Shown one piece after another: positions 11,447-52,089 of a stretch of 64,000 nt of DNA (its first letter is position 1; each line of letters starts with the position of its first letter). The stretch comes from an uncultured Alphaproteobacteria bacterium. GTDB taxonomy: Bacteria; Pseudomonadota; Alphaproteobacteria; UBA7879; VGCX01. The position numbers were made by a program, and so were the translations under genes. Under the pieces are notes generated by a model. That model searched no databases, had not been told where the DNA came from, and was given only the letters and a program-made list of their open reading frames with translations. Location: assembly GCA_913061155.1 (NCBI GenBank), contig CAJXSI010000001.1, forward strand, positions 13,955 through 77,954, in the 5' to 3' direction.

Positions 11447-13381
11447 ATGAAATATATACATTACTTAATTTTTATAATAATAACAGGGGTTACCATACCA
11501 CTTGAAGCCGCCGTGGTCAAAGCGCCAGCGAAAATTTCCTGTGACCAAGAACTTAAAAAATCATATAAAAGCTTAAACAAAAGGCAAGTCCCCCATATCC
11601 CGCAGAAGGAAAAGTGCCCTGTTGAAAACAAATTAATAACCTGGTTATGGCTTTTGAAAAAAAATAGCCAAGCTTCTTTCCGCGATCACGTCAGGTTTAT
11701 TCAAGGAAATCCAACATGGCCGGAACTTACAAAAATAAAAGAACATGCAGAATTGGCCATTAAAAGCAAAATTCCAAATTATGAAATTATAAAATATTTT
11801 GATGTTTATCGGCCTATTTCGCCGCCAGGCGCCATTCAATATGCCCGCGCCCTGCTTAAAAGCAACCAAAAGAAAAAATCTGTAACTTTAATTAAAGACT
11901 GGTGGCGCAATAAAAATTTTAGTGCAAAGACAGAAAGGGAATTTCATAAGCTTTTTAAGCAGTACTTAACGAATGAAGATTATAAATACCGCTTGGACCG
12001 CCTTATAATGGAAGGAAACTACTACGGTTTGAAGCGGATGAAGCCAAGGGTGAACAGGCAGTCACAAAAGCTAATAGAAGCAGCCATAGCGTTATCAAGA
12101 AATTTAAGTAGTGTGAACAGAAAAGTTGGGGCCCTTTCAAAAAAAGATGCCTTAAATCCAGGGATTATTTATCAGCGTATGCGCTGGCGGTTGCGACGAA
12201 AGAAATATGATAATGCCTATGAAATATTTAAAGAGGCTGAAAAGAAAGGGATAACAAAACGGTTTCCTGGCAGGTGGTTTAAGTATAAATATTACTTTGC
12301 CCGGAAAAGATTTGAAAATAAAGATTATAAAACGGCATACAGCATGATACGTAACCATAATCTTTCGCCCAAAACACATGATATAGCAGACTATTCAGCG
12401 GCAGAATGGTTTTCAGGATGGTTGGCCTTAAGGTTTTTAAACAAGCCGCAACAAGCCATTCAACATTTTAAAAATATGCATAATGTTGTGGGAACACCCA
12501 TTAGCCTTTCAAAGGGCGCCTATTGGATTGGCAGGGCTTATAAAAAACTTGGAAATAAAGAAAATGCAGATAAATGGATGATGGAAGCTGCAAAAAATCC
12601 CCATGTTTTTTATGGACAAATGGCCGCAGCTGCATTGAAAAAACCCTTGAATATCATAATCCATGATGTGGCAAGGGATCCAGACCTGCCCAGTGAAAAT
12701 GATAAGGTGATAATGGATGCTGTTTATGCGTTATCAAAAGTTGACCCCCAAAGTAAAAGGTTGCGTAAAATGCTGTTTGATTTATCAAAGTATTCAGATA
12801 GCCGTATTTCCGAAGCAATTGTTGAATTGACTATAAAAATTGGAAAACCTGAATGGGCGGTTGTGGTCGCAAAGATTGCAGGGCGGCGTGATTCTCCAAT
12901 TCTTAAGGCGGCTTATCCAATTAAAAAACTACCTAAGCAAGTAAGTGAGTGGGGGGTTGACCCAATATTTATTCACAGTCTGATACGTCAAGAAAGTGGG
13001 TTTAATCCCAAGGCAAAAAGCAATGCAGGGGCAAGGGGGCTGATGCAAATAATGCCAAGAACGGCACGGTTGCTTGCCAAGAAATTAAAGTTACGGTATG
13101 CCCTTGTGAAGCTAACGGCGGATCCTACTTATAATATGATATTGGGCTGTTATTATGTTTCACGCTTAATGAAAGAATTTAAGGGAAGCAAAATAAAATC
13201 ACTTGCTGGATACAATGCTGGGGAATCCAGGGTTCGCAAATGGGTTAAATTATTTGGAGAGCCAGAAAAAGAGACGGATATTATAGATTGGATGGAAAGC
13301 ATTCCTTTCTCAGAAACCCGTTCTTATGTTATGCGGGTCATGGAATCTTATCCTGTTTACGCAAGGATTCTTCCTAAATAA
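11447..13381 (+). CDS. slt: Soluble lytic murein transglycosylase (Slt family)
   Basis: C-terminal SLT catalytic domain (IRQESGFNPKAKSNAGARGLMQIMP...GYNAG) after a superhelical repeat region. Start moved to the Met beginning the signal-like MKYIHYLIFIIITGV. Confidence 0.8.
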   Translation: MKYIHYLIFIIITGVTIPLEAAVVKAPAKISCDQELKKSYKSLNKRQVPHIPQKEKCPVENKLITWLWLLKKNSQASFRDHVRFIQGNPTWPELTKIKEHAELAIKSKIPNYEIIKYFDVYRPISPPGAIQYARALLKSNQKKKSVTLIKDWWRNKNFSAKTEREFHKLFKQYLTNEDYKYRLDRLIMEGNYYGLKRMKPRVNRQSQKLIEAAIALSRNLSSVNRKVGALSKKDALNPGIIYQRMRWRLRRKKYDNAYEIFKEAEKKGITKRFPGRWFKYKYYFARKRFENKDYKTAYSMIRNHNLSPKTHDIADYSAAEWFSGWLALRFLNKPQQAIQHFKNMHNVVGTPISLSKGAYWIGRAYKKLGNKENADKWMMEAAKNPHVFYGQMAAAALKKPLNIIIHDVARDPDLPSENDKVIMDAVYALSKVDPQSKRLRKMLFDLSKYSDSRISEAIVELTIKIGKPEWAVVVAKIAGRRDSPILKAAYPIKKLPKQVSEWGVDPIFIHSLIRQESGFNPKAKSNAGARGLMQIMPRTARLLAKKLKLRYALVKLTADPTYNMILGCYYVSRLMKEFKGSKIKSLAGYNAGESRVRKWVKLFGEPEKETDIIDWMESIPFSETRSYVMRVMESYPVYARILPK

Positions 13382-13494
13382 CGTAGGTTTTTTGGGTGGG
13401 GGAATTATTTTTTATCTAAGCTCTTTACTTTCTGTAAAAAAGATTTACATTAGGACTTGAAAAAAGTTACCCATATAGGGTTTGCTTAGGCATC

Positions 13495-13571
13495 GCGCCC
13501 GTAGCTCAATTGGATAGAGTACTTGACTACGAATCAAGAGGTTAGAGGTTCGACTCCTCTCGGGCGCACCA
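13495..13571 (+). tRNA. tRNA-Arg (anticodon ACG)
   Basis: GCGCCCG acceptor stem pairing with CGGGCGC-A-CCA, anticodon loop CTACGAA, T-loop TTCGACT. 77 nt with encoded CCA. Confidence 0.9.
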
Positions 13572-13595
13572 TTCATATCATAAGATTTCAACTAT

Positions 13596-14600
13596 TTACT
13601 TTCCGTACACTTTCTGAAGATAAGCAATGTTTTTGGAATAGTTTTCACCCCGATAATAATATTTTCTTAAGACACTTAAACATCTTTTTTGAAAATCAGT
13701 ATTCCCCAAGTATTGATCAAGCCTGGTTTCTTTACCCCCCTTTTTTACTGGGGACCTCATCATAATTTGCGCTGCCAGATTTAGCATGGTTCTTGTGGTT
13801 TCTGTCGAATCCTTTTCAACATTTATACTGTCCATGAAATAACAAATATAATTTTCCGTTTTTTCCACGGGGCATTGTGAAAGGCATTTATAAAAGCGTG
13901 TCATATACTTGTTTTTTGAATGAGAAAGTTTCAAGGCCAGGCTTTTTATAAGATCGATTAAGTCAGCAGGATTGCGTTTTGCCGTATGTTTAATGAAACC
14001 CTCTATGGATCTTGATGTTTTTGGTATTCTTTGTGGCGTGCAATAATTTTGACACCAATCAAATAATCCTTTTGTTTTAATGAAAGACGATAGAGAGTTA
14101 ACAGATTTGTTTTTGCAGGTGTGGTGATATTCTTTGAACTGAGGATATGTCTTTTCAAAAACTTGCTTGAATAACCGTAAGGTTTTTGTCAAGTTTTGGG
14201 TTATCTCTGCTGGATTTTTTTTCTTTAAGTCTAAGGACATTAACTTAATATGGTTAACACACTTTTGCGTGTTAAAGTTTCTTAATAAAGCATAAAGCTT
14301 GTTATTTTCTGGGCTTTTTTCCTGTCCCGTTATCTTTGGTATATCCAATAATTTCTTTGCCAGAGGTTCTATGGTTTCTTGCGCAGGGGATAAGGCAAGG
14401 TTATAAAGCAATTCACAATAATAGGCCGTAGATTCAGTGTAAGAACAATCTGTCAGGCATTTTAAAGGGGGGACGTCTTTGGTATAGTTAAGGGCATCAT
14501 GACGCCCCCTTTTTGCATCACACTTATAAGCACATAAAAAATTTGCTTCAGAAAATCTTCCAATCAATAAAACGCAACAGCACAGAAATAACTTTAACAT
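13596..14600 (-). CDS. Secreted cysteine-rich hypothetical protein
   Basis: Signal peptide MLKLFLCCCVLLIGRFSEA, more than 20 Cys, no recognisable domain. Confidence 0.45.
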   Translation of the reverse strand: MLKLFLCCCVLLIGRFSEANFLCAYKCDAKRGRHDALNYTKDVPPLKCLTDCSYTESTAYYCELLYNLALSPAQETIEPLAKKLLDIPKITGQEKSPENNKLYALLRNFNTQKCVNHIKLMSLDLKKKNPAEITQNLTKTLRLFKQVFEKTYPQFKEYHHTCKNKSVNSLSSFIKTKGLFDWCQNYCTPQRIPKTSRSIEGFIKHTAKRNPADLIDLIKSLALKLSHSKNKYMTRFYKCLSQCPVEKTENYICYFMDSINVEKDSTETTRTMLNLAAQIMMRSPVKKGGKETRLDQYLGNTDFQKRCLSVLRKYYYRGENYSKNIAYLQKVYGK

Positions 14601-14663
14601 AATTATAAGCCCACCTAATCGATGAAAGGTTATCTTATATAAAAAAGGCTGTAAACGACTATT

Positions 14664-14948
14664 TTATTGTTTTTTCGTCAAACTTTTTAAGTACGATAAA
14701 GTAAGGGCCCGCAAGCTTTCAAGGTATGTTTTATATTCAGGGTCAAAATATAGACGCTCAATATTATTATCAATTTCCCCTAAAAGATTTAAGATCTTAT
14801 TTCTTTTATGCCAAATCGGCAGTTTATCTTGTTTTAAAAGCTTTATGCTTTCATAAAATTTTTGTTCAAGCATAAGGACGGTTTTTTCTTGCTGCCGCGC
14901 AGAAAAAAAACAATAGGTTTTCTTATAGATATTTTTACTTAATAACAT
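14664..14948 (-). CDS. Hypothetical protein (orphan, 94 aa)
   Basis: Open frame only, no recognisable motif. Confidence 0.3.
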   Translation of the reverse strand: MLLSKNIYKKTYCFFSARQQEKTVLMLEQKFYESIKLLKQDKLPIWHKRNKILNLLGEIDNNIERLYFDPEYKTYLESLRALTLSYLKSLTKKQ

Positions 14949-30462: not shown

Positions 30463-30633
30463 TTATTTTCTGGCCTTGTCTTCATTCGTATTAACAAAAA
30501 TTTTACTGCAATAGGGGCATTGAATCTTTTCCCCATCCTTTAGTTTAAGAAAAATACGGGGGTGACCGTAAGGGGAAGGTTCCCCATTGCAGGCAACTGT
30601 TGTTTGCTTTGTTAATGTAATACCAGTTTTCAT
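30463..30633 (-). CDS. zf-CHCC zinc-finger mini-protein (NDUFS6-like, 56 aa)
   Basis: Translated by hand from the minus strand, since it is below the ORF-track cutoff: MKTGITLTKQTTVACNGEPSPYGHPRIFLKLKDGEKIQCPYCSKIFVNTNEDKARK. It carries the GHP-R-hydrophobic ... C-P-Y-C pattern of zf-CHCC. Confidence 0.55.
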   Translation of the reverse strand: MKTGITLTKQTTVACNGEPSPYGHPRIFLKLKDGEKIQCPYCSKIFVNTNEDKARK

Positions 30634-30671: not shown

Positions 30672-31343
30672 TTAAATTTCTTTTCGAAAGATCGCCCGGT
30701 CTTCGGCTGTGTGATATTTACCGGCTTTATACGTTTCAAAATCTTTTTGCTTCCAAGTCAATGCAACATACCCTGTTGTGACGGGTTTTTTGTTTTTTGG
30801 AAACAGCCCAAGAATTTTTTCTTGCGCTGTTTTTGTTTGGCTTTCATCATCTACCAAGATTTCAATTTCTACGAAGTTGCCTAAGTTTTTTACCTGGTCC
30901 ACGCAAATGGTTGTTGTTCCTTTTTTATAGGTCTCCCTGGTTTTATCCACCGTGATTGATTGTGAAAGATTGTTTTGGGAAAGAAAAGAATCAAATGAAT
31001 TAACCCCATCTTTGTTTAATCCAAGTAGATCTAAAAGATCATGCAGGGCAGGGATTTTTTCAGCTTTAAAAGGAATATCAAAACTATATTCATTACAGTG
31101 GGTATACTCTTCAGAAAAACGTTCAGACTGGATATCTCGCATATTAAATTTGAAATCCAGGACATCTTTGTTTCGAGCCCTTATAAAAATACCTTTTTTA
31201 AATAAGTCATTTTTTGAGTTATCATAATAGATGTCTTCTAAACGGTTTGTTGAATCATATGAAAACCCTTGATCCAATACTGCCTTGATATCATCTTCAC
31301 TATTAACCTCAAATTTTAATTCAACTTCTATTTGTTTCATCAC
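30672..31343 (-). CDS. CYTH-domain protein (CyaB/thiamine-triphosphatase-like triphosphate tunnel fold), putative
   Basis: N-terminal IEVELKFEV matches the CYTH E-x-E-x-K signature. Acidic residues recur on alternating strands. Lies 3 nt downstream of the 620-aa secreted protein gene. Confidence 0.45.
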   Translation of the reverse strand: MMKQIEVELKFEVNSEDDIKAVLDQGFSYDSTNRLEDIYYDNSKNDLFKKGIFIRARNKDVLDFKFNMRDIQSERFSEEYTHCNEYSFDIPFKAEKIPALHDLLDLLGLNKDGVNSFDSFLSQNNLSQSITVDKTRETYKKGTTTICVDQVKNLGNFVEIEILVDDESQTKTAQEKILGLFPKNKKPVTTGYVALTWKQKDFETYKAGKYHTAEDRAIFRKEI

Positions 31344-31346
31344 AAC

Positions 31347-33209
31347 CTATTCTTCTAATTTTTTAAGGACATCTTCATAAGATTCAAACTTTGTTGCCCA
31401 ATCTAAGCCAATATTGCCAGGCCAAGTTGGTTTCGCCACAGGGATCTCTTTCTTCAAAATTTCAAAAAACTCTGGGCTAACCAGTTTGGTTAATTGGGTG
31501 ACTGGCATATTTTTTAATTTATTGATGACTTCAATCCCTTTTTTGGGAGGTATCTTAGACCCTTCCTTCCAGTTATCTCTAAGAGAATCATGAAAATCAA
31601 CCGTTTTCCGATCAAGAAACCTTATGGCTTTGATGAGCGCTTGAAATTTTTTATTGGGGTTATAAAGCCTGTATATAGATGTGCCTTTGGGGCTGACAAA
31701 ATCAGGGGTGTGAGTATCTTTGTAAAATTCTATAATAATCTTTTCAATTGCTTCACTGTAGGGTTTTGATGTTAATAAATATGGAGCTGTCCCATCTGGT
31801 ATTTCAAACCCTTTAAGATAGTCAGGAATGAAACTATCTGTTCGTTCGTCAAGCTTTTTAACATTATCAATTTGTTCAAGAATGTCCCTTGTTGCAGGAA
31901 GGTCATCGGGATACACTTCACGGAAAAGGTTATAACGTGTCACTTGACGTAACTGATAATCACTAAGACGATCAATAGACTTAATCACTTGAAGTCTTTT
32001 TTCTAAATTGTACATAAAGGGAATTTTTCTGGCAATTTGAAGCCACAGATCAAATTTTTCACCATTTAAAAATACAGCATTGCTGTATGTCTTGGCTTTT
32101 TTTCCAAAATTATTTTTACTCAAGCGGACAACTGCCTTCAATAATTCTAAGCGTTTTTCTGCAGTAATGCCCGTTGTGGTCATTTCTGTGACGATCCTTT
32201 TTATTGTATCTGCTTGGCTAGGTTCCAGACCTCTTAAAAGCTCATCCACTTTTTTCCTGACATCAGGGGATATAGATTTGTCATACCACAGTTTTTCATG
32301 TCTTTTCCCAAATTTAGTATTTTCGCTTTTTGTTGCTTTCCAACCCCCGTCAGGTGCAAATTCTTTTTCCAATATTCCTTTTGTTTCTTTTAAGGCTTTG
32401 CCAAAGCTGATTTTTAAGGCTTTTTCAGTGTTAAGTTTCTTCTCTTGTACAGTTTCTGGAAAGTGGAAAAAACTAAATTCATTTTTACTAAATTCGATAG
32501 ACGTTGGGGCTTTCCGCCCGTTATCTTCATGAATGAATTTTACTTGCCGGTGTAGGATGTTTATAAGCCAATACAACAGCTTTTTATCTTTCTCTGTTTG
32601 TGCCTTATCAAGTTTTTCTAAAGTTGATAGGCCATATTTGTCAAAAGCTTTTTCATAGGAAATACCATCAAATTTCATGTCTTTATTTGCATTAAGGCAC
32701 TGTTCAGTTGATTTATTGCTGCATACCTTGCGCCCATCCAGCACATCAGATGAATCGCTGGCTGCTTTACAGGCATAATATATATAAGGGTCTTTACAGT
32801 TTGATGCGTTACAAACAGAGGAACATGCCTTGTTTCCACCGCCAAAACCAGTATCAATTATGTTTCCACAAGCATACAAACCAATTTGGCACATGTTATC
32901 GACACCTAATAATTTTTCTTTATTGTCTGTATATAGTTCAAAATTATGGGCAGTAACGTGTTGCCCAAATTTAGTTGCTGCAATTATAAGAAGAGGCCCC
33001 TTTGATCCAATTATTGTGGATTTTGAAGATCGTTTGATGGATGGTTTTGGGCATTTTTTATTTTTTATAAGCGTGATATAGTTTGCACATGTTTTGAACA
33101 TGGCATAAATATTGGGACGTTCTGCATAAAGGCTGCTATTGAAGGCGCTTGCTGTATTGGATAAAGCCAAAAACCCCGCCACCAATAAAAATATTCTAAT
33201 TTTTTTCAT
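31347..33209 (-). CDS. Large secreted hypothetical protein (620 aa) with a Cys-rich N-terminal region
   Basis: Signal peptide MKKIRIFLLVAGFLALSNTASA. Cys cluster in residues ~40-170. No recognisable catalytic motif. Confidence 0.45.
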   Translation of the reverse strand: MKKIRIFLLVAGFLALSNTASAFNSSLYAERPNIYAMFKTCANYITLIKNKKCPKPSIKRSSKSTIIGSKGPLLIIAATKFGQHVTAHNFELYTDNKEKLLGVDNMCQIGLYACGNIIDTGFGGGNKACSSVCNASNCKDPYIYYACKAASDSSDVLDGRKVCSNKSTEQCLNANKDMKFDGISYEKAFDKYGLSTLEKLDKAQTEKDKKLLYWLINILHRQVKFIHEDNGRKAPTSIEFSKNEFSFFHFPETVQEKKLNTEKALKISFGKALKETKGILEKEFAPDGGWKATKSENTKFGKRHEKLWYDKSISPDVRKKVDELLRGLEPSQADTIKRIVTEMTTTGITAEKRLELLKAVVRLSKNNFGKKAKTYSNAVFLNGEKFDLWLQIARKIPFMYNLEKRLQVIKSIDRLSDYQLRQVTRYNLFREVYPDDLPATRDILEQIDNVKKLDERTDSFIPDYLKGFEIPDGTAPYLLTSKPYSEAIEKIIIEFYKDTHTPDFVSPKGTSIYRLYNPNKKFQALIKAIRFLDRKTVDFHDSLRDNWKEGSKIPPKKGIEVINKLKNMPVTQLTKLVSPEFFEILKKEIPVAKPTWPGNIGLDWATKFESYEDVLKKLEE

Positions 33210-33406
33210 TTTATGCCTCCCTAATCTTAAAATAGGATACCAGAGTTTAAAAACGAGTTAAATTTATTTTTAAAAGTTTCTTGATTTTTCACTCAAGAAA
33301 GGGCATTTTTCAAGTACAAATTGGGGGTTAAGTCACAATTTGAAATATTTATTGATTTTACGAAATACCTTTTCAGCACCATATTAAAATCTGAAAATAT
33401 TAATTT

Positions 33407-33483
<77 letters not shown>

Positions 33484-34927: not shown

Positions 34928-36153
34928 AGAAAAAAGGTAAGGAGAAGAAAGAAATGGGAAAAGCGAAGTTTGAAAGGACGAAGCCGCACGTAAACATAGG
35001 AACGATTGGGCACGTGGACCATGGGAAGACGACATTAACAGCGGCGATTACGAAAGTATTGTCTGTGGGTGGTGGCGCAGAATTTAAAGCGTATGATCAG
35101 ATTGATGGAGCGCCAGAAGAAAGAGAACGCGGGATTACGATATCAACAGCCCACGTTGAATATGAAACAGCAAACCGTCATTATGCGCACGTTGACTGTC
35201 CAGGACACGCCGATTATGTAAAGAACATGATTACGGGTGCGGCCCAAATGGATGGTGGTATTTTGGTTGTATCGGCAACAGACGGACCGATGCCACAAAC
35301 GCGTGAGCATATCTTGTTAGCGCGCCAAGTTGGTGTACCAGCCTTGGTTGTGTTCATGAACAAGTGTGACCAAGTGGATGATCCAGAATTGTTAGACTTG
35401 GTGGAAATGGAAATTCGTGAATTGCTAAGCAGTTATGAATTCCCAGGGGATGATATTCCAGTGATCCGTGGGTCAGCTTTGTGTGCATTGGAAGGGACCA
35501 ATCCAGAGCTTGGTGAGCAGGCAGTTACGAAATTGATGGAAGAGGTAGATAACTATATTCCAGCACCGGAACGTGATAAGGACAAACCATTCTTGATGCC
35601 GATTGAAGATGTCTTTTCAATTCCAGGACGTGGAACAGTTGTAACAGGACGTGTTGAAAGCGGAGTTATTAATGTTGGTGAAGAAGTAGAAATTGTTGGG
35701 ATTAGAGACACAGTAAAGACAACAGTAACGGGCGTTGAAATGTTCCGTAAGTTGTTGGATCATGGTGAAGCTGGTGACAACATTGGTGCATTGTTACGTG
35801 GGACAAAGAAAGAAGATGTGGAACGCGGTCAAGTATTGACAGCGCCAGGAAAGATTAAGCCGCACACAAGATTCATGTGTGAAGCCTATGTCTTGACGAA
35901 AGATGAAGGGGGGCGTCATACACCGTTCTTCTCAAACTATCGTCCACAGTTCTATTTTAGAACAACAGACGTGACGGGATCGACAGTATTGCCAGAAGGG
36001 ACAGAGATGGTAATGCCAGGAGATAACATCACAATGGAAGTAAGTTTAATTGCACCGATTGCTATGGACGAAGGACTTCGTTTCGCAATACGTGAAGGTG
36101 GCCGTACTGTTGGTGCCGGTGTCGTTACTAAAATTATTGAATAATAATCTTAG
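34928..36153 (+). repeat. tuf repeat copy A (~1.2 kb, near-identical to 50865-52089)
   Basis: Identity starts within the shared SD region GAAAAAAGGTAAGGAGAAGAAAGAAATG and ends just after TAATAATCTT. Only one nucleotide difference was noticed by eye (36123 C vs 52058 T, synonymous). Confidence 0.8.
34954..36144 (+). CDS. tuf: Elongation factor Tu (copy 1)
   Basis: [14 protein letters not shown]..., [12 protein letters not shown] motifs. 396 aa, identical in protein sequence to the copy at 50889. Confidence 0.97.
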
Positions 36154-50864: not shown

Positions 50865-52089
50865 AAAAAAGGTAAGGAGAAGAAAGAAATGGGAAAAGCG
50901 AAGTTTGAAAGGACGAAGCCGCACGTAAACATAGGAACGATTGGGCACGTGGACCATGGGAAGACGACATTAACAGCGGCGATTACGAAAGTATTGTCTG
51001 TGGGTGGTGGCGCAGAATTTAAAGCGTATGATCAGATTGATGGAGCGCCAGAAGAAAGAGAACGCGGGATTACGATATCAACAGCCCACGTTGAATATGA
51101 AACAGCAAACCGTCATTATGCGCACGTTGACTGTCCAGGACACGCCGATTATGTAAAGAACATGATTACGGGTGCGGCCCAAATGGATGGTGGTATTTTG
51201 GTTGTATCGGCAACAGACGGACCGATGCCACAAACGCGTGAGCATATCTTGTTAGCGCGCCAAGTTGGTGTACCAGCCTTGGTTGTGTTCATGAACAAGT
51301 GTGACCAAGTGGATGATCCAGAATTGTTAGACTTGGTGGAAATGGAAATTCGTGAATTGCTAAGCAGTTATGAATTCCCAGGGGATGATATTCCAGTGAT
51401 CCGTGGGTCAGCTTTGTGTGCATTGGAAGGGACCAATCCAGAGCTTGGTGAGCAGGCAGTTACGAAATTGATGGAAGAGGTAGATAACTATATTCCAGCA
51501 CCGGAACGTGATAAGGACAAACCATTCTTGATGCCGATTGAAGATGTCTTTTCAATTCCAGGACGTGGAACAGTTGTAACAGGACGTGTTGAAAGCGGAG
51601 TTATTAATGTTGGTGAAGAAGTAGAAATTGTTGGGATTAGAGACACAGTAAAGACAACAGTAACGGGCGTTGAAATGTTCCGTAAGTTGTTGGATCATGG
51701 TGAAGCTGGTGACAACATTGGTGCATTGTTACGTGGGACAAAGAAAGAAGATGTGGAACGCGGTCAAGTATTGACAGCGCCAGGAAAGATTAAGCCGCAC
51801 ACAAGATTCATGTGTGAAGCCTATGTCTTGACGAAAGATGAAGGGGGGCGTCATACACCGTTCTTCTCAAACTATCGTCCACAGTTCTATTTTAGAACAA
51901 CAGACGTGACGGGATCGACAGTATTGCCAGAAGGGACAGAGATGGTAATGCCAGGAGATAACATCACAATGGAAGTAAGTTTAATTGCACCGATTGCTAT
52001 GGACGAAGGACTTCGTTTCGCAATACGTGAAGGTGGCCGTACTGTTGGTGCCGGTGTTGTTACTAAAATTATTGAATAATAATCTTTAG
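50865..52089 (+). repeat. tuf repeat copy B
   Basis: See copy A. Confidence 0.8.
50889..52079 (+). CDS. tuf: Elongation factor Tu (copy 2, str operon)
   Basis: Protein identical to copy 1. The flanking ~25 nt upstream and ~10 nt downstream are also identical. Confidence 0.97.

Follow-up and report, generated by a model that had tools for sequence, protein, structure and literature searches.

An orphan exported-protein gene and a CYTH phosphohydrolase gene as probable neighbours by position at a recombining tRNA-adjacent slot of an uncultured alphaproteobacterial clade

Within the window, a 64,000-nt stretch of DNA from an uncultured alphaproteobacterium, the gene of a 620-amino-acid (aa) protein with a predicted secretion signal almost abuts the gene of a CYTH-domain protein. 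The original prediction described this arrangement as an apparent operon, and possibly as a toxin with its partner or a new signalling or defence pair. We estimate a probability of about 0.7 that the two genes are positional neighbours at a recombination hot spot and not a dedicated system. The CYTH gene is a core gene of the clade, which encodes a cytoplasmic enzyme and is located between a tRNA-Arg(CCG) gene and the sdh operon. The 620-aa protein, judged by the searches described below, belongs to a tiny, fast-evolving family confined to one uncultured alphaproteobacterial clade. The interval between tRNA and CYTH is a variable slot, holding a gene for a protein of about 620 aa in some lineages and being empty in others. 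The genes that delimit and occupy it in the window are:

31347 to 33209, minus strand: gene of the 620-aa, putatively exported orphan-family protein (identified by its open reading frame (ORF), its homologues and the ratio of non-synonymous to synonymous divergence, dN/dS)
30672 to 31343, minus strand: gene of the CYTH / triphosphate-tunnel metalloenzyme, 222 aa if started at the ATG (31340) and 223 aa if started at the GTG (31343) (Pfam: PF01928; PDB profile matches)
30463 to 30633, minus strand: small zf-CHCC gene (Pfam: PF10276; also tblastn), 38 nt downstream of CYTH and its conserved neighbour throughout the clade
33407 to 33483, plus strand: tRNA-Arg(CCG), the fixed left border of the variable slot, with a gene for a DegT-family aminotransferase directly after it

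The window represents core chromosome, with sdhCDAB, the gene series tuf-secE-nusG-rplKAJL-rpoBC, and GcrA. The closest named SdhA sequences (75-77% identity) come from metagenome-assembled genomes (MAGs) of Rhodospirillales and Stellaceae, and the clade itself consists of about nine SdhA clusters that are at least 91% identical. One related MAG carries the NCBI label 'uncultured Rhizobiaceae bacterium'. Our comparison loci are labelled L001 to L042. The interval from sdhB to DegT is assembled in seven lineages (the window, L040, L001, L003, L007, L009 and L038); L005 and L006 are short contigs. L040 is about 98% identical to the window, and the flanks of L001 share about 96% DNA identity with it (SdhA 98.7%, SdhB 99.6%, EF-Tu 97.7%). 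For L038, identity to the window amounts to 72-79% in the backbone DNA, 93.6% in SdhA, 71% in zf-CHCC and 72% in DegT, and this locus represents a different species-level lineage. L036 and L003 are both part of the MAG GCA_964350815.1.

The order of tRNA-Arg(CCG), CYTH and zf-CHCC is the same in all seven lineages in which the interval is assembled, and tblastn locates the zf-CHCC gene in L001, L003, L007, L009, L037 and L038. The slot itself varies. It is occupied by the 620-aa gene, co-directional with CYTH, in the window, L040, L038/L039, L007/L008, L005 and L006. It is empty in L001, L003, L009 and L037, where the distance from the tRNA/DegT side to CYTH is only about 200-380 bp and tblastn detects no remnant of the 620-aa gene. 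The empty slot of L001 exists despite the nearly identical flanking DNA. Conversely, homologues of the 620-aa protein that we classify as type C (L036 and L042) are encoded at another locus, flanked by LplA/RuvX and an ABC-F gene and without CYTH in the vicinity, and the copy in L036 resides in the same MAG as the lone CYTH of L003. No trace of the 620-aa family was found at 25 loci around distant CYTH homologues. A conserved pair would always be adjacent, with neither gene occurring alone; here, CYTH stands alone in four lineages, and L036 and L042 contain unlinked homologues of its neighbour. The two genes are separable in nature. Furthermore, the CYTH proteins of the window and L007, both with the upstream gene, are 72.5% identical, whereas those of the window and L001, which has no upstream gene, are 87.4% identical; hence CYTH alleles do not group by the presence of the upstream gene. 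The co-occurrence of both genes outside the window, on which the original prediction depended, is thus real for L005, L006, L007/L008, L038/L039 and L040, but all adjacent cases fall within one narrow clade (SdhA at least 91% identical), so that adjacency can be understood simply as retained synteny.

How the genes came together in the window can be read from a tract of about 2.6 kb with two mapped borders:

30715 to 33326, no strand assigned: recombination tract of about 2.6 kb with about 94% DNA identity to L038; it includes the 620-aa gene together with its 5' region and all of CYTH except the last ~40 bp
33335 to 33365, minus strand: 31-nt motif TTTCGTAAAATCAATAAATATTTCAAATTGT, 42-72 bp upstream of tRNA-Arg, with the left crossover inside it or next to it

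Between the window and L038, both the 620-aa protein and CYTH are 93% identical as proteins and about 94% identical as DNA. Along a 100-bp sliding frame, identity between the two is about 70% in DegT and about 85% at the tRNA, reaches about 94% from 33215 to 30716, and is about 71% in zf-CHCC. Against L038, the window shows synonymous distances (dS) of 1.08 in sdhA and 1.53 in sdhB, compared with 0.16 in the 620-aa gene and 0.30 in CYTH; against L001, the values are 0.18 in sdhA, 0.12 in sdhB and 0.74 in CYTH. The CYTH gene of the window is mostly L038-like and turns L001-like in its last ~40 bp, a stretch conserved in all lineages. On the other side, the window is L001-like from the tRNA to the 31-nt motif and L038-like thereafter, with homology to L001 ending at 33326. 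From these switches in identity and dS we therefore conclude that the window combines an L001-like backbone with about 2.6 kb of foreign descent, and that the crossovers fall in the nearest conserved sequence on either side. The tract represents the gain, or the allele replacement, of an accessory gene by homologous recombination between species. The CYTH allele co-travelled because CYTH supplied the right-hand homology. Because the identity profile along CYTH is mosaic between lineages, this locus must recombine often.

The 31-nt motif is near-invariant in all aligned lineages, with one A/G change (L003, L038) and one A/T change (L009); it occurs once in the window, and the intergenic DNA around it diverges. 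Possibly it serves the tRNA-Arg/DegT unit as promoter or regulatory region; alternatively, it could be a promoter of divergent orientation. A mobile element or integrase-borne island was considered as the carrier of the tract and rejected, as its flanks contain no meaningful direct or inverted repeats and the interval no recombinase gene.

In the lineage of the window, the ~2.6 kb tract with the 620-aa gene and most of CYTH was exchanged with another species by one crossover in the tRNA-proximal motif and one in the conserved 3' end of CYTH, the latter gene acting as a homology arm. CYTH would then probably be transcribed from the promoter of the 620-aa gene, an operon by accretion.

A true two-gene module, in which an exported Cys-rich effector, toxin or sensor needs the cytoplasmic CYTH protein and both spread as a unit, is in our judgement quite unlikely. 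The CYTH enzyme could then produce or degrade a nucleotide or polyphosphate signal governing expression or export of the Cys-rich protein, or could be a protective partner. A module would agree with the adjacency and common orientation of the genes at all the loci with an occupied slot (the window, L040, L038/L039, L007/L008, L005 and L006), with the gap of 3-6 nt in three genomes, with the exchange of a single ~2.6 kb tract containing both genes between species, and with the observation that CYTH evolves faster than housekeeping genes (dN/dS 0.06-0.12 versus 0.01-0.04). However, the four lineages with a lone CYTH include sisters of both cassette-bearing lineages, members of the 620-aa family occur elsewhere without CYTH (L036, L042), and distant CYTH homologues have no such neighbour. 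Co-transfer is expected from the mechanism alone, the crossovers being in conserved flanks; CYTH alleles are not clustered by partner presence; the spacing varies, with a hairpin between the genes in L006/L007; the products would occupy different compartments; and no PADLOC, toxin or CHAD match was obtained. The idea of a toxin with its partner, or of a signalling or defence pair, is accordingly not borne out by the lone CYTH genes in four lineages, the unlinked homologues and the unconserved spacing. That the ~2.6 kb tract is a mobile module, in which an exported disulfide-rich protein depends on a CYTH phosphohydrolase of the Phe type described below, has in our view a slimmer chance still; if true, such a connection of a triphosphate-tunnel enzyme with a protein outside the cytoplasm would not have been described before. 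A tempting system of secreted protein and CYTH is herewith removed from the list as unsupported, and the locus suggests how false pairs may originate: an accessory gene enters a variable slot beside a core gene, and recombination uses the core gene as an arm.

Several points weigh against reading the genes as mere neighbours. They were transferred together and nearly abut in three genomes of two species, and a true module would look the same. Furthermore, CYTH is found in every genome known to contain the 620-aa family, although, as a core gene of the clade, it would trivially be there in any case. Since MAGs are incomplete, the absence of the 620-aa gene from L001 and L009 is proven only for the slot, not for the whole genomes. 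With regard to the presumed function of the 620-aa protein, there is no fold or family match that would favour a binding or scaffold role over an enzyme, and an active site could be built from its many invariant Tyr, Lys, Arg and Asp residues; its export is deduced by rule.

As for the junction, both reading frames lie where the original prediction had placed them. The sequence GAA TAG GTT GTG ATG AAA CAA leaves 3 nt to the GTG start and 6 nt to the ATG at 31340. Genomes with CYTH alone start at that ATG (MKQIEVELKF), and L040 has ATG where the window has GTG. No terminator-like site was found between the 620-aa gene and CYTH in the window. The window, L040 and L038 all have a gap of 3-6 nt between the genes, and CYTH would be read from the promoter of the upstream gene in these three, because such a gap leaves no room for another. 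Co-transcription of both genes in the window genome is therefore plausible, indeed likely, given the tight gap without a terminator-like site; of the apparent operon originally described, this part stands, and the dedicated functional pair does not.

The spacing is 120-125 nt in L006/L007. In this type B spacer, a GC-rich stem-loop GCGAGCGCCC-GTA-GGGCGCGCGGCGA is located at 2143-2168 in L006, 3875-3900 in L007 and 2242-2267 in L008; it is identical in all three loci, within AT-rich genomes, and absent from the window. We do not claim this hairpin as a terminator, as it lacks a T-run and its z-score reaches only -1.4; it could be an element of the repetitive extragenic palindromic (REP) kind or one for RNA stability. 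In the 5' region of the 620-aa gene, the following element was noticed:

33277 to 33300, minus strand: perfect 8-bp inverted repeat TTTCTTGA-N8-TCAAGAAA

A promoter-like site (TTGAAA-18-AAAAAT, 33313 to 33284) overlaps this repeat, which L038 shares apart from a single change in its loop and which could be an operator.

The 620-aa protein starts with a signal peptide and a Cys-rich N-terminal domain, which a linker of low conservation (about aa 200-300) connects to an all-alpha C-terminal domain:

33144 to 33209, minus strand: predicted Sec signal peptide of the signal peptidase I (SPase I) type, MKKIRIFLLVAGFLALSNTASA, aa 1-22, with predicted cleavage after ASA22 (rule-based)
32697 to 33089, minus strand: Cys-rich module, aa 41-171, with 10 invariant Cys (alignment of homologues)
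31350 to 32342, minus strand: predicted all-alpha C-terminal domain, aa 290-620, in which numerous Tyr, Lys, Arg and Asp residues are invariant (YPDDLP, KLDxR, PDxxSxK, YRxYxP)

Export was judged by rule-based features, namely n-, h- and c-region, AxA, lack of a lipobox, and conservation. The N-terminus, MKKIRIFLLVAGFLALSNTASA|F, shows a basic n-region, a hydrophobic core and a c-region; the most hydrophobic 19-mer begins at residue 4, the sole AxA of the protein lies at residues 20-22, a motif scan finds no lipobox, and the signal peptide is retained in five of five homologues. In agreement with the original prediction of a Sec signal peptide, the protein should be exported and cleaved after Ala22. 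The Cys-rich module had been credited with about 14 Cys; the correct number is exactly 10 (positions 41, 53, 107, 114, 129, 133, 138, 147, 163 and 171), all invariant across five homologues, and they probably form five disulfides that stabilize the N-terminal module. The Cys motif quoted at the time, GFGGGNKACSSVCNASNC, is indeed present at residues 121-138. The C-terminal half, likewise described correctly as Lys/Glu-rich and helical, contains 12.5% Lys and 7.5% Glu and is predicted to be all-alpha; the motifs LRGL, GKxA, LSxYQLxQV, YPDDLP, KLDxR, PDxxSxK and YRxYxP are kept in the homologues.

The full-length AlphaFold (AF2) model of the protein is poor, with a predicted local distance difference test (pLDDT) score of 56.8, and a Foldseek search with it returned noise only. 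The model of residues 290-620 is usable (pLDDT 74.7, all-alpha). The protein has no family match in Pfam (E up to 10), NCBIfam, PADLOC or PHROGs, no match in a sequence-profile search of the PDB, and no fold match, whether to an enzyme or to any other protein; judging by the model, its fold may be generic helical or new. Neither this protein nor CYTH matches CHAD, toxin or defence-system profiles, so the CHAD-like or toxin fold once envisaged for the 620-aa protein has not materialized. We presume that it would be exported across the inner membrane by the Sec signal peptide and would work beyond the cytoplasm (in the periplasm, on the cell surface or extracellularly), as a helical protein without enzymatic activity that serves binding or scaffolding in a lineage-specific interaction. 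This role fits because of the fast divergence, the presence/absence polymorphism and the exchange between species.

A secreted or periplasmic enzyme of new fold, independent of CYTH and acting as a hydrolase or transferase on envelope or host polymers, seems unlikely to us but is the kind of function that the invariant C-terminal residues might serve: H304, W308, R326, K337, R353, K370, Y418 and Q419, as well as Y433-P-D-D-L-P438, K452-L-D454-x-R456, D503, S506, K508 and Y513-R514. The purifying selection on the gene and the moderately confident model of the C-terminal domain agree with such an activity. Against it, no profile or fold match links the protein to any enzyme, and a motif scan finds none of the known catalytic motifs HExxH, GxSxG and Walker A, nor CxxC, in line with the earlier statement that it bears no catalytic signature.

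The family of the 620-aa protein is small by every search. A word-indexed search of 5.8 billion proteins returned the protein itself and two relatives with 41-44% identity. An exhaustive hidden Markov model (HMM) search of 1.84 billion cluster representatives returned three clusters at 50% identity, one fragment and one spurious repeat protein; the last, P0035 (E 1.5e-5), was rejected as a family member, being an unrelated repeat protein of the S-layer type. Of the scans of metagenomes, one remained without match and another gave one locus. The homologues are P0002, P0003 and P0033 together with the copies in L007/L008, L038/L039, L040, L036 and L042, and they can be classified into three types. 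Type A (the window, L040, L038) is at least 93% identical among its members, type B (L005, L006, L007) is about 42% identical to type A, and type C (L036, L042) about 34%, with the L042 copy 88.5% identical to that of L036. The signal peptide, the 10 Cys and the C-terminal motifs are kept in all three types. Between lineages with 92-94% identity in SdhA, members of the family share 34-44% identity. In general, secreted ORFans limited to a single clade are a common sight at variable loci.

Near the type C homologue of L036, a 469-aa leucine-rich-repeat protein with faint Pfam matches is encoded at 13360-14769 (minus strand); it is possibly a hint of a host-associated lifestyle.

One might suspect that so restricted an ORF, without homologues outside one clade and without any family match, is decaying or spurious and the pair an artefact of annotation. 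We give this practically no credence. An intact ORF of 599-624 aa is found in at least eight contigs from several lineages, neither the 10 Cys nor the signal peptide varies, and the pairwise dN/dS of 0.16-0.28 is well under 1, which effectively refutes the suspicion and makes the ORF a real gene under purifying selection. By their dN/dS both ORFs are genes and not chance ORFs. The constraint on the 620-aa gene is much looser than that on CYTH (0.06-0.12) or on sdhA/B (0.01-0.04). As an orphan exported family with 10 invariant Cys, these proteins are candidates for a role in the cell envelope or in interactions of an uncultured lineage of Alphaproteobacteria.

The assignment of the second protein to the CYTH/triphosphate-tunnel metalloenzymes (TTM) was confirmed. 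The 223-aa protein matches Pfam PF01928 with 72.2 bits against a cut-off of 23.2 (E 6.2e-20, residues 5-185), and its ExExK motif consists of E5, E7 and K9. In 17 CYTH relatives E5, E7, R54, R56, K133, R135, E158 and E160 are invariant, K9 nearly so. A profile of these 17 relatives matches the PDB entries 3n0y/2fjt, 2een (PH1819, Pyrococcus) and 7ns8 (SaTTM, Sulfolobus).

Cyclases and phosphohydrolases among the CYTH enzymes were told apart by the criteria of Vogt et al. (PMC8233210). Class IV adenylate cyclases (AC-IV) carry an HF motif four residues before ExExK (HFxxxxExExK), a small residue in place of the first Arg of xRxR, and ExA instead of ExE; the combination of ExExK, both Arg of xRxR, and ExE denotes the two-metal phosphohydrolase chemistry of TTM and thiamine triphosphatase (ThTPase) enzymes (PMC8233210). 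The CYTH protein of the window has no HF motif, for which its start MKQIEVELKF leaves no room. It retains R54, which aligns with V61 of YpCyaB, and E158-I-E160, in which E160 aligns with the Ala of the YpCyaB motif EIA. The NCBIfam equivalog cyaB (TIGR00318) reaches 47.1 bits, below its cut-off of 57.95, in a partial match to residues 93-180. Because HF is absent, R54 and ExE are kept, and TIGR00318 remains below its cut-off, we rejected class IV adenylate cyclase as an interpretation; the protein is best read as a phosphohydrolase-type TTM.

An aromatic residue two positions before the first Arg is otherwise confined to the ThTPase and plant TTM1/2 groups (PMC8233210). F52 of the CYTH protein (F-I-R-A-R) is invariant at this position, where ThTPases have a stacking Trp or Tyr and other TTMs a small residue. 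The protein also has an insertion at about aa 57-112 and, beyond the Pfam domain, a conserved C-terminal extension of about 35 aa (TTGYxxLxWRKxDFExYKxGKY). Relatives outside the clade are 33-41% identical and mostly belong to Patescibacteria/Saccharibacteria, i.e. bacteria of the Candidate Phyla Radiation (CPR), and to DPANN archaea (loci L014-L024). These, too, share the C-terminal extension and the invariant Phe at the Trp position of ThTPases. The CYTH proteins of the window and of its CPR/DPANN relatives are thus suggested to form a distinct subfamily, which was possibly acquired horizontally. Besides the orphan family, this subfamily with its invariant Phe and the delimited inter-species tract with its mapped crossovers are of modest further value. 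At L012 (2911-7698), a distant CYTH homologue (38% identity) adjoins a 1595-aa ORF for ribonucleotide reductase (RNR), in which duplicated RNR domains are interrupted by Ham1-like and TSCPD segments; a Ser/Thr kinase gene is nearby, and the contig may be viral or of unusual origin.

Among characterized enzymes, the archaeal proteins SaTTM (Saci_0718, PDB 7ns8) and PH1819 (PDB 2een) have the CYTH domain, ExExK, both Arg of xRxR and both Glu of ExE in common with the CYTH protein of the window. However, the profile match to them is only E 1e-9 to 6e-12, and the protein differs by the insertion at aa 57-112, by the C-terminal extension and by the invariant Phe in place of a small residue. The best-scoring solved relative is CyaB, the AC-IV of Yersinia pestis (PDB 3n0y/2fjt; profile E 1.5e-16), and some database sources name CYTH relatives 'adenylate cyclase class IV'; nevertheless, every tested signature of that class fails for the window protein (HF, small residue for Arg, ExA, TIGR00318). 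Mammalian ThTPase and plant TTM1/2 have the motif W/Y-x-R-x-R, and the window protein is likewise aromatic there (F52-x-R54-x-R56), but its residue is Phe and not Trp or Tyr, and no direct ThTPase sequence match was retrieved. With the CYTH-CHAD proteins of polyphosphate granules it shares the CYTH domain; CHAD (Pfam: PF05235) was found neither in CYTH, nor in the 620-aa family (E up to 10), nor in the neighbouring gene tables. The 620-aa protein resembles no described family. The CYTH protein thus is a divergent representative of a known superfamily. No known system of defence, toxicity or signalling includes the pair, and the evidence speaks against its being a system at all.

Lineage-specific accessory proteins that are secreted or exposed at the surface, encoded at variable loci next to tRNA genes, are a general pattern of genome plasticity. 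The locus studied here shares with this pattern the presence/absence between near-identical genomes, the fast divergence, the exchange by homologous recombination via conserved flanks, and a candidate defence gene inserted nearby. Unlike in the usual pattern, its slot shows neither an integrase nor direct repeats at its flanks nor the end of a transposon, and it lies 5' of the tRNA gene, not 3'. Apart from the likely co-transcription in the window genome, we regard the arrangement as ordinary genome plasticity.

The candidate defence gene (29017 to 30264, minus strand) encodes a 415-aa AAA_14 + DUF4143 ATPase, which matches the candidate defence family PDC-S01 of PADLOC-DB 2.0 with E 8e-144. 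In the window and L040 it sits between zf-CHCC and the small secreted ORFs on the sdh side; it is absent at the same position in L001, L003, L007, L009 and L038. The small ORFs, at 27808 to 28572 (plus strand, 254 aa) and 28694 to 28921 (plus strand, 75 aa), are orphans with signal-peptide-like N-termini and no family match, and in the 254-aa ORF the hydrophobic segment is followed by a run of Ala. In L001, conservation of both amounts to 93-94%; both are also present in L040, where the first is shorter (188 aa); other small ORFs replace them in L007 and L038. With the inserted PDC-S01 ATPase and the lineage-specific small secreted ORFs by sdhB, the region is a plasticity zone.

Outside this zone, the window contains two copies of tuf, each encoding an EF-Tu of 396 aa (34954 to 36144 and 50889 to 52079, both plus strand). 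In DNA comparisons with relatives, the second tuf region cross-matches the first.

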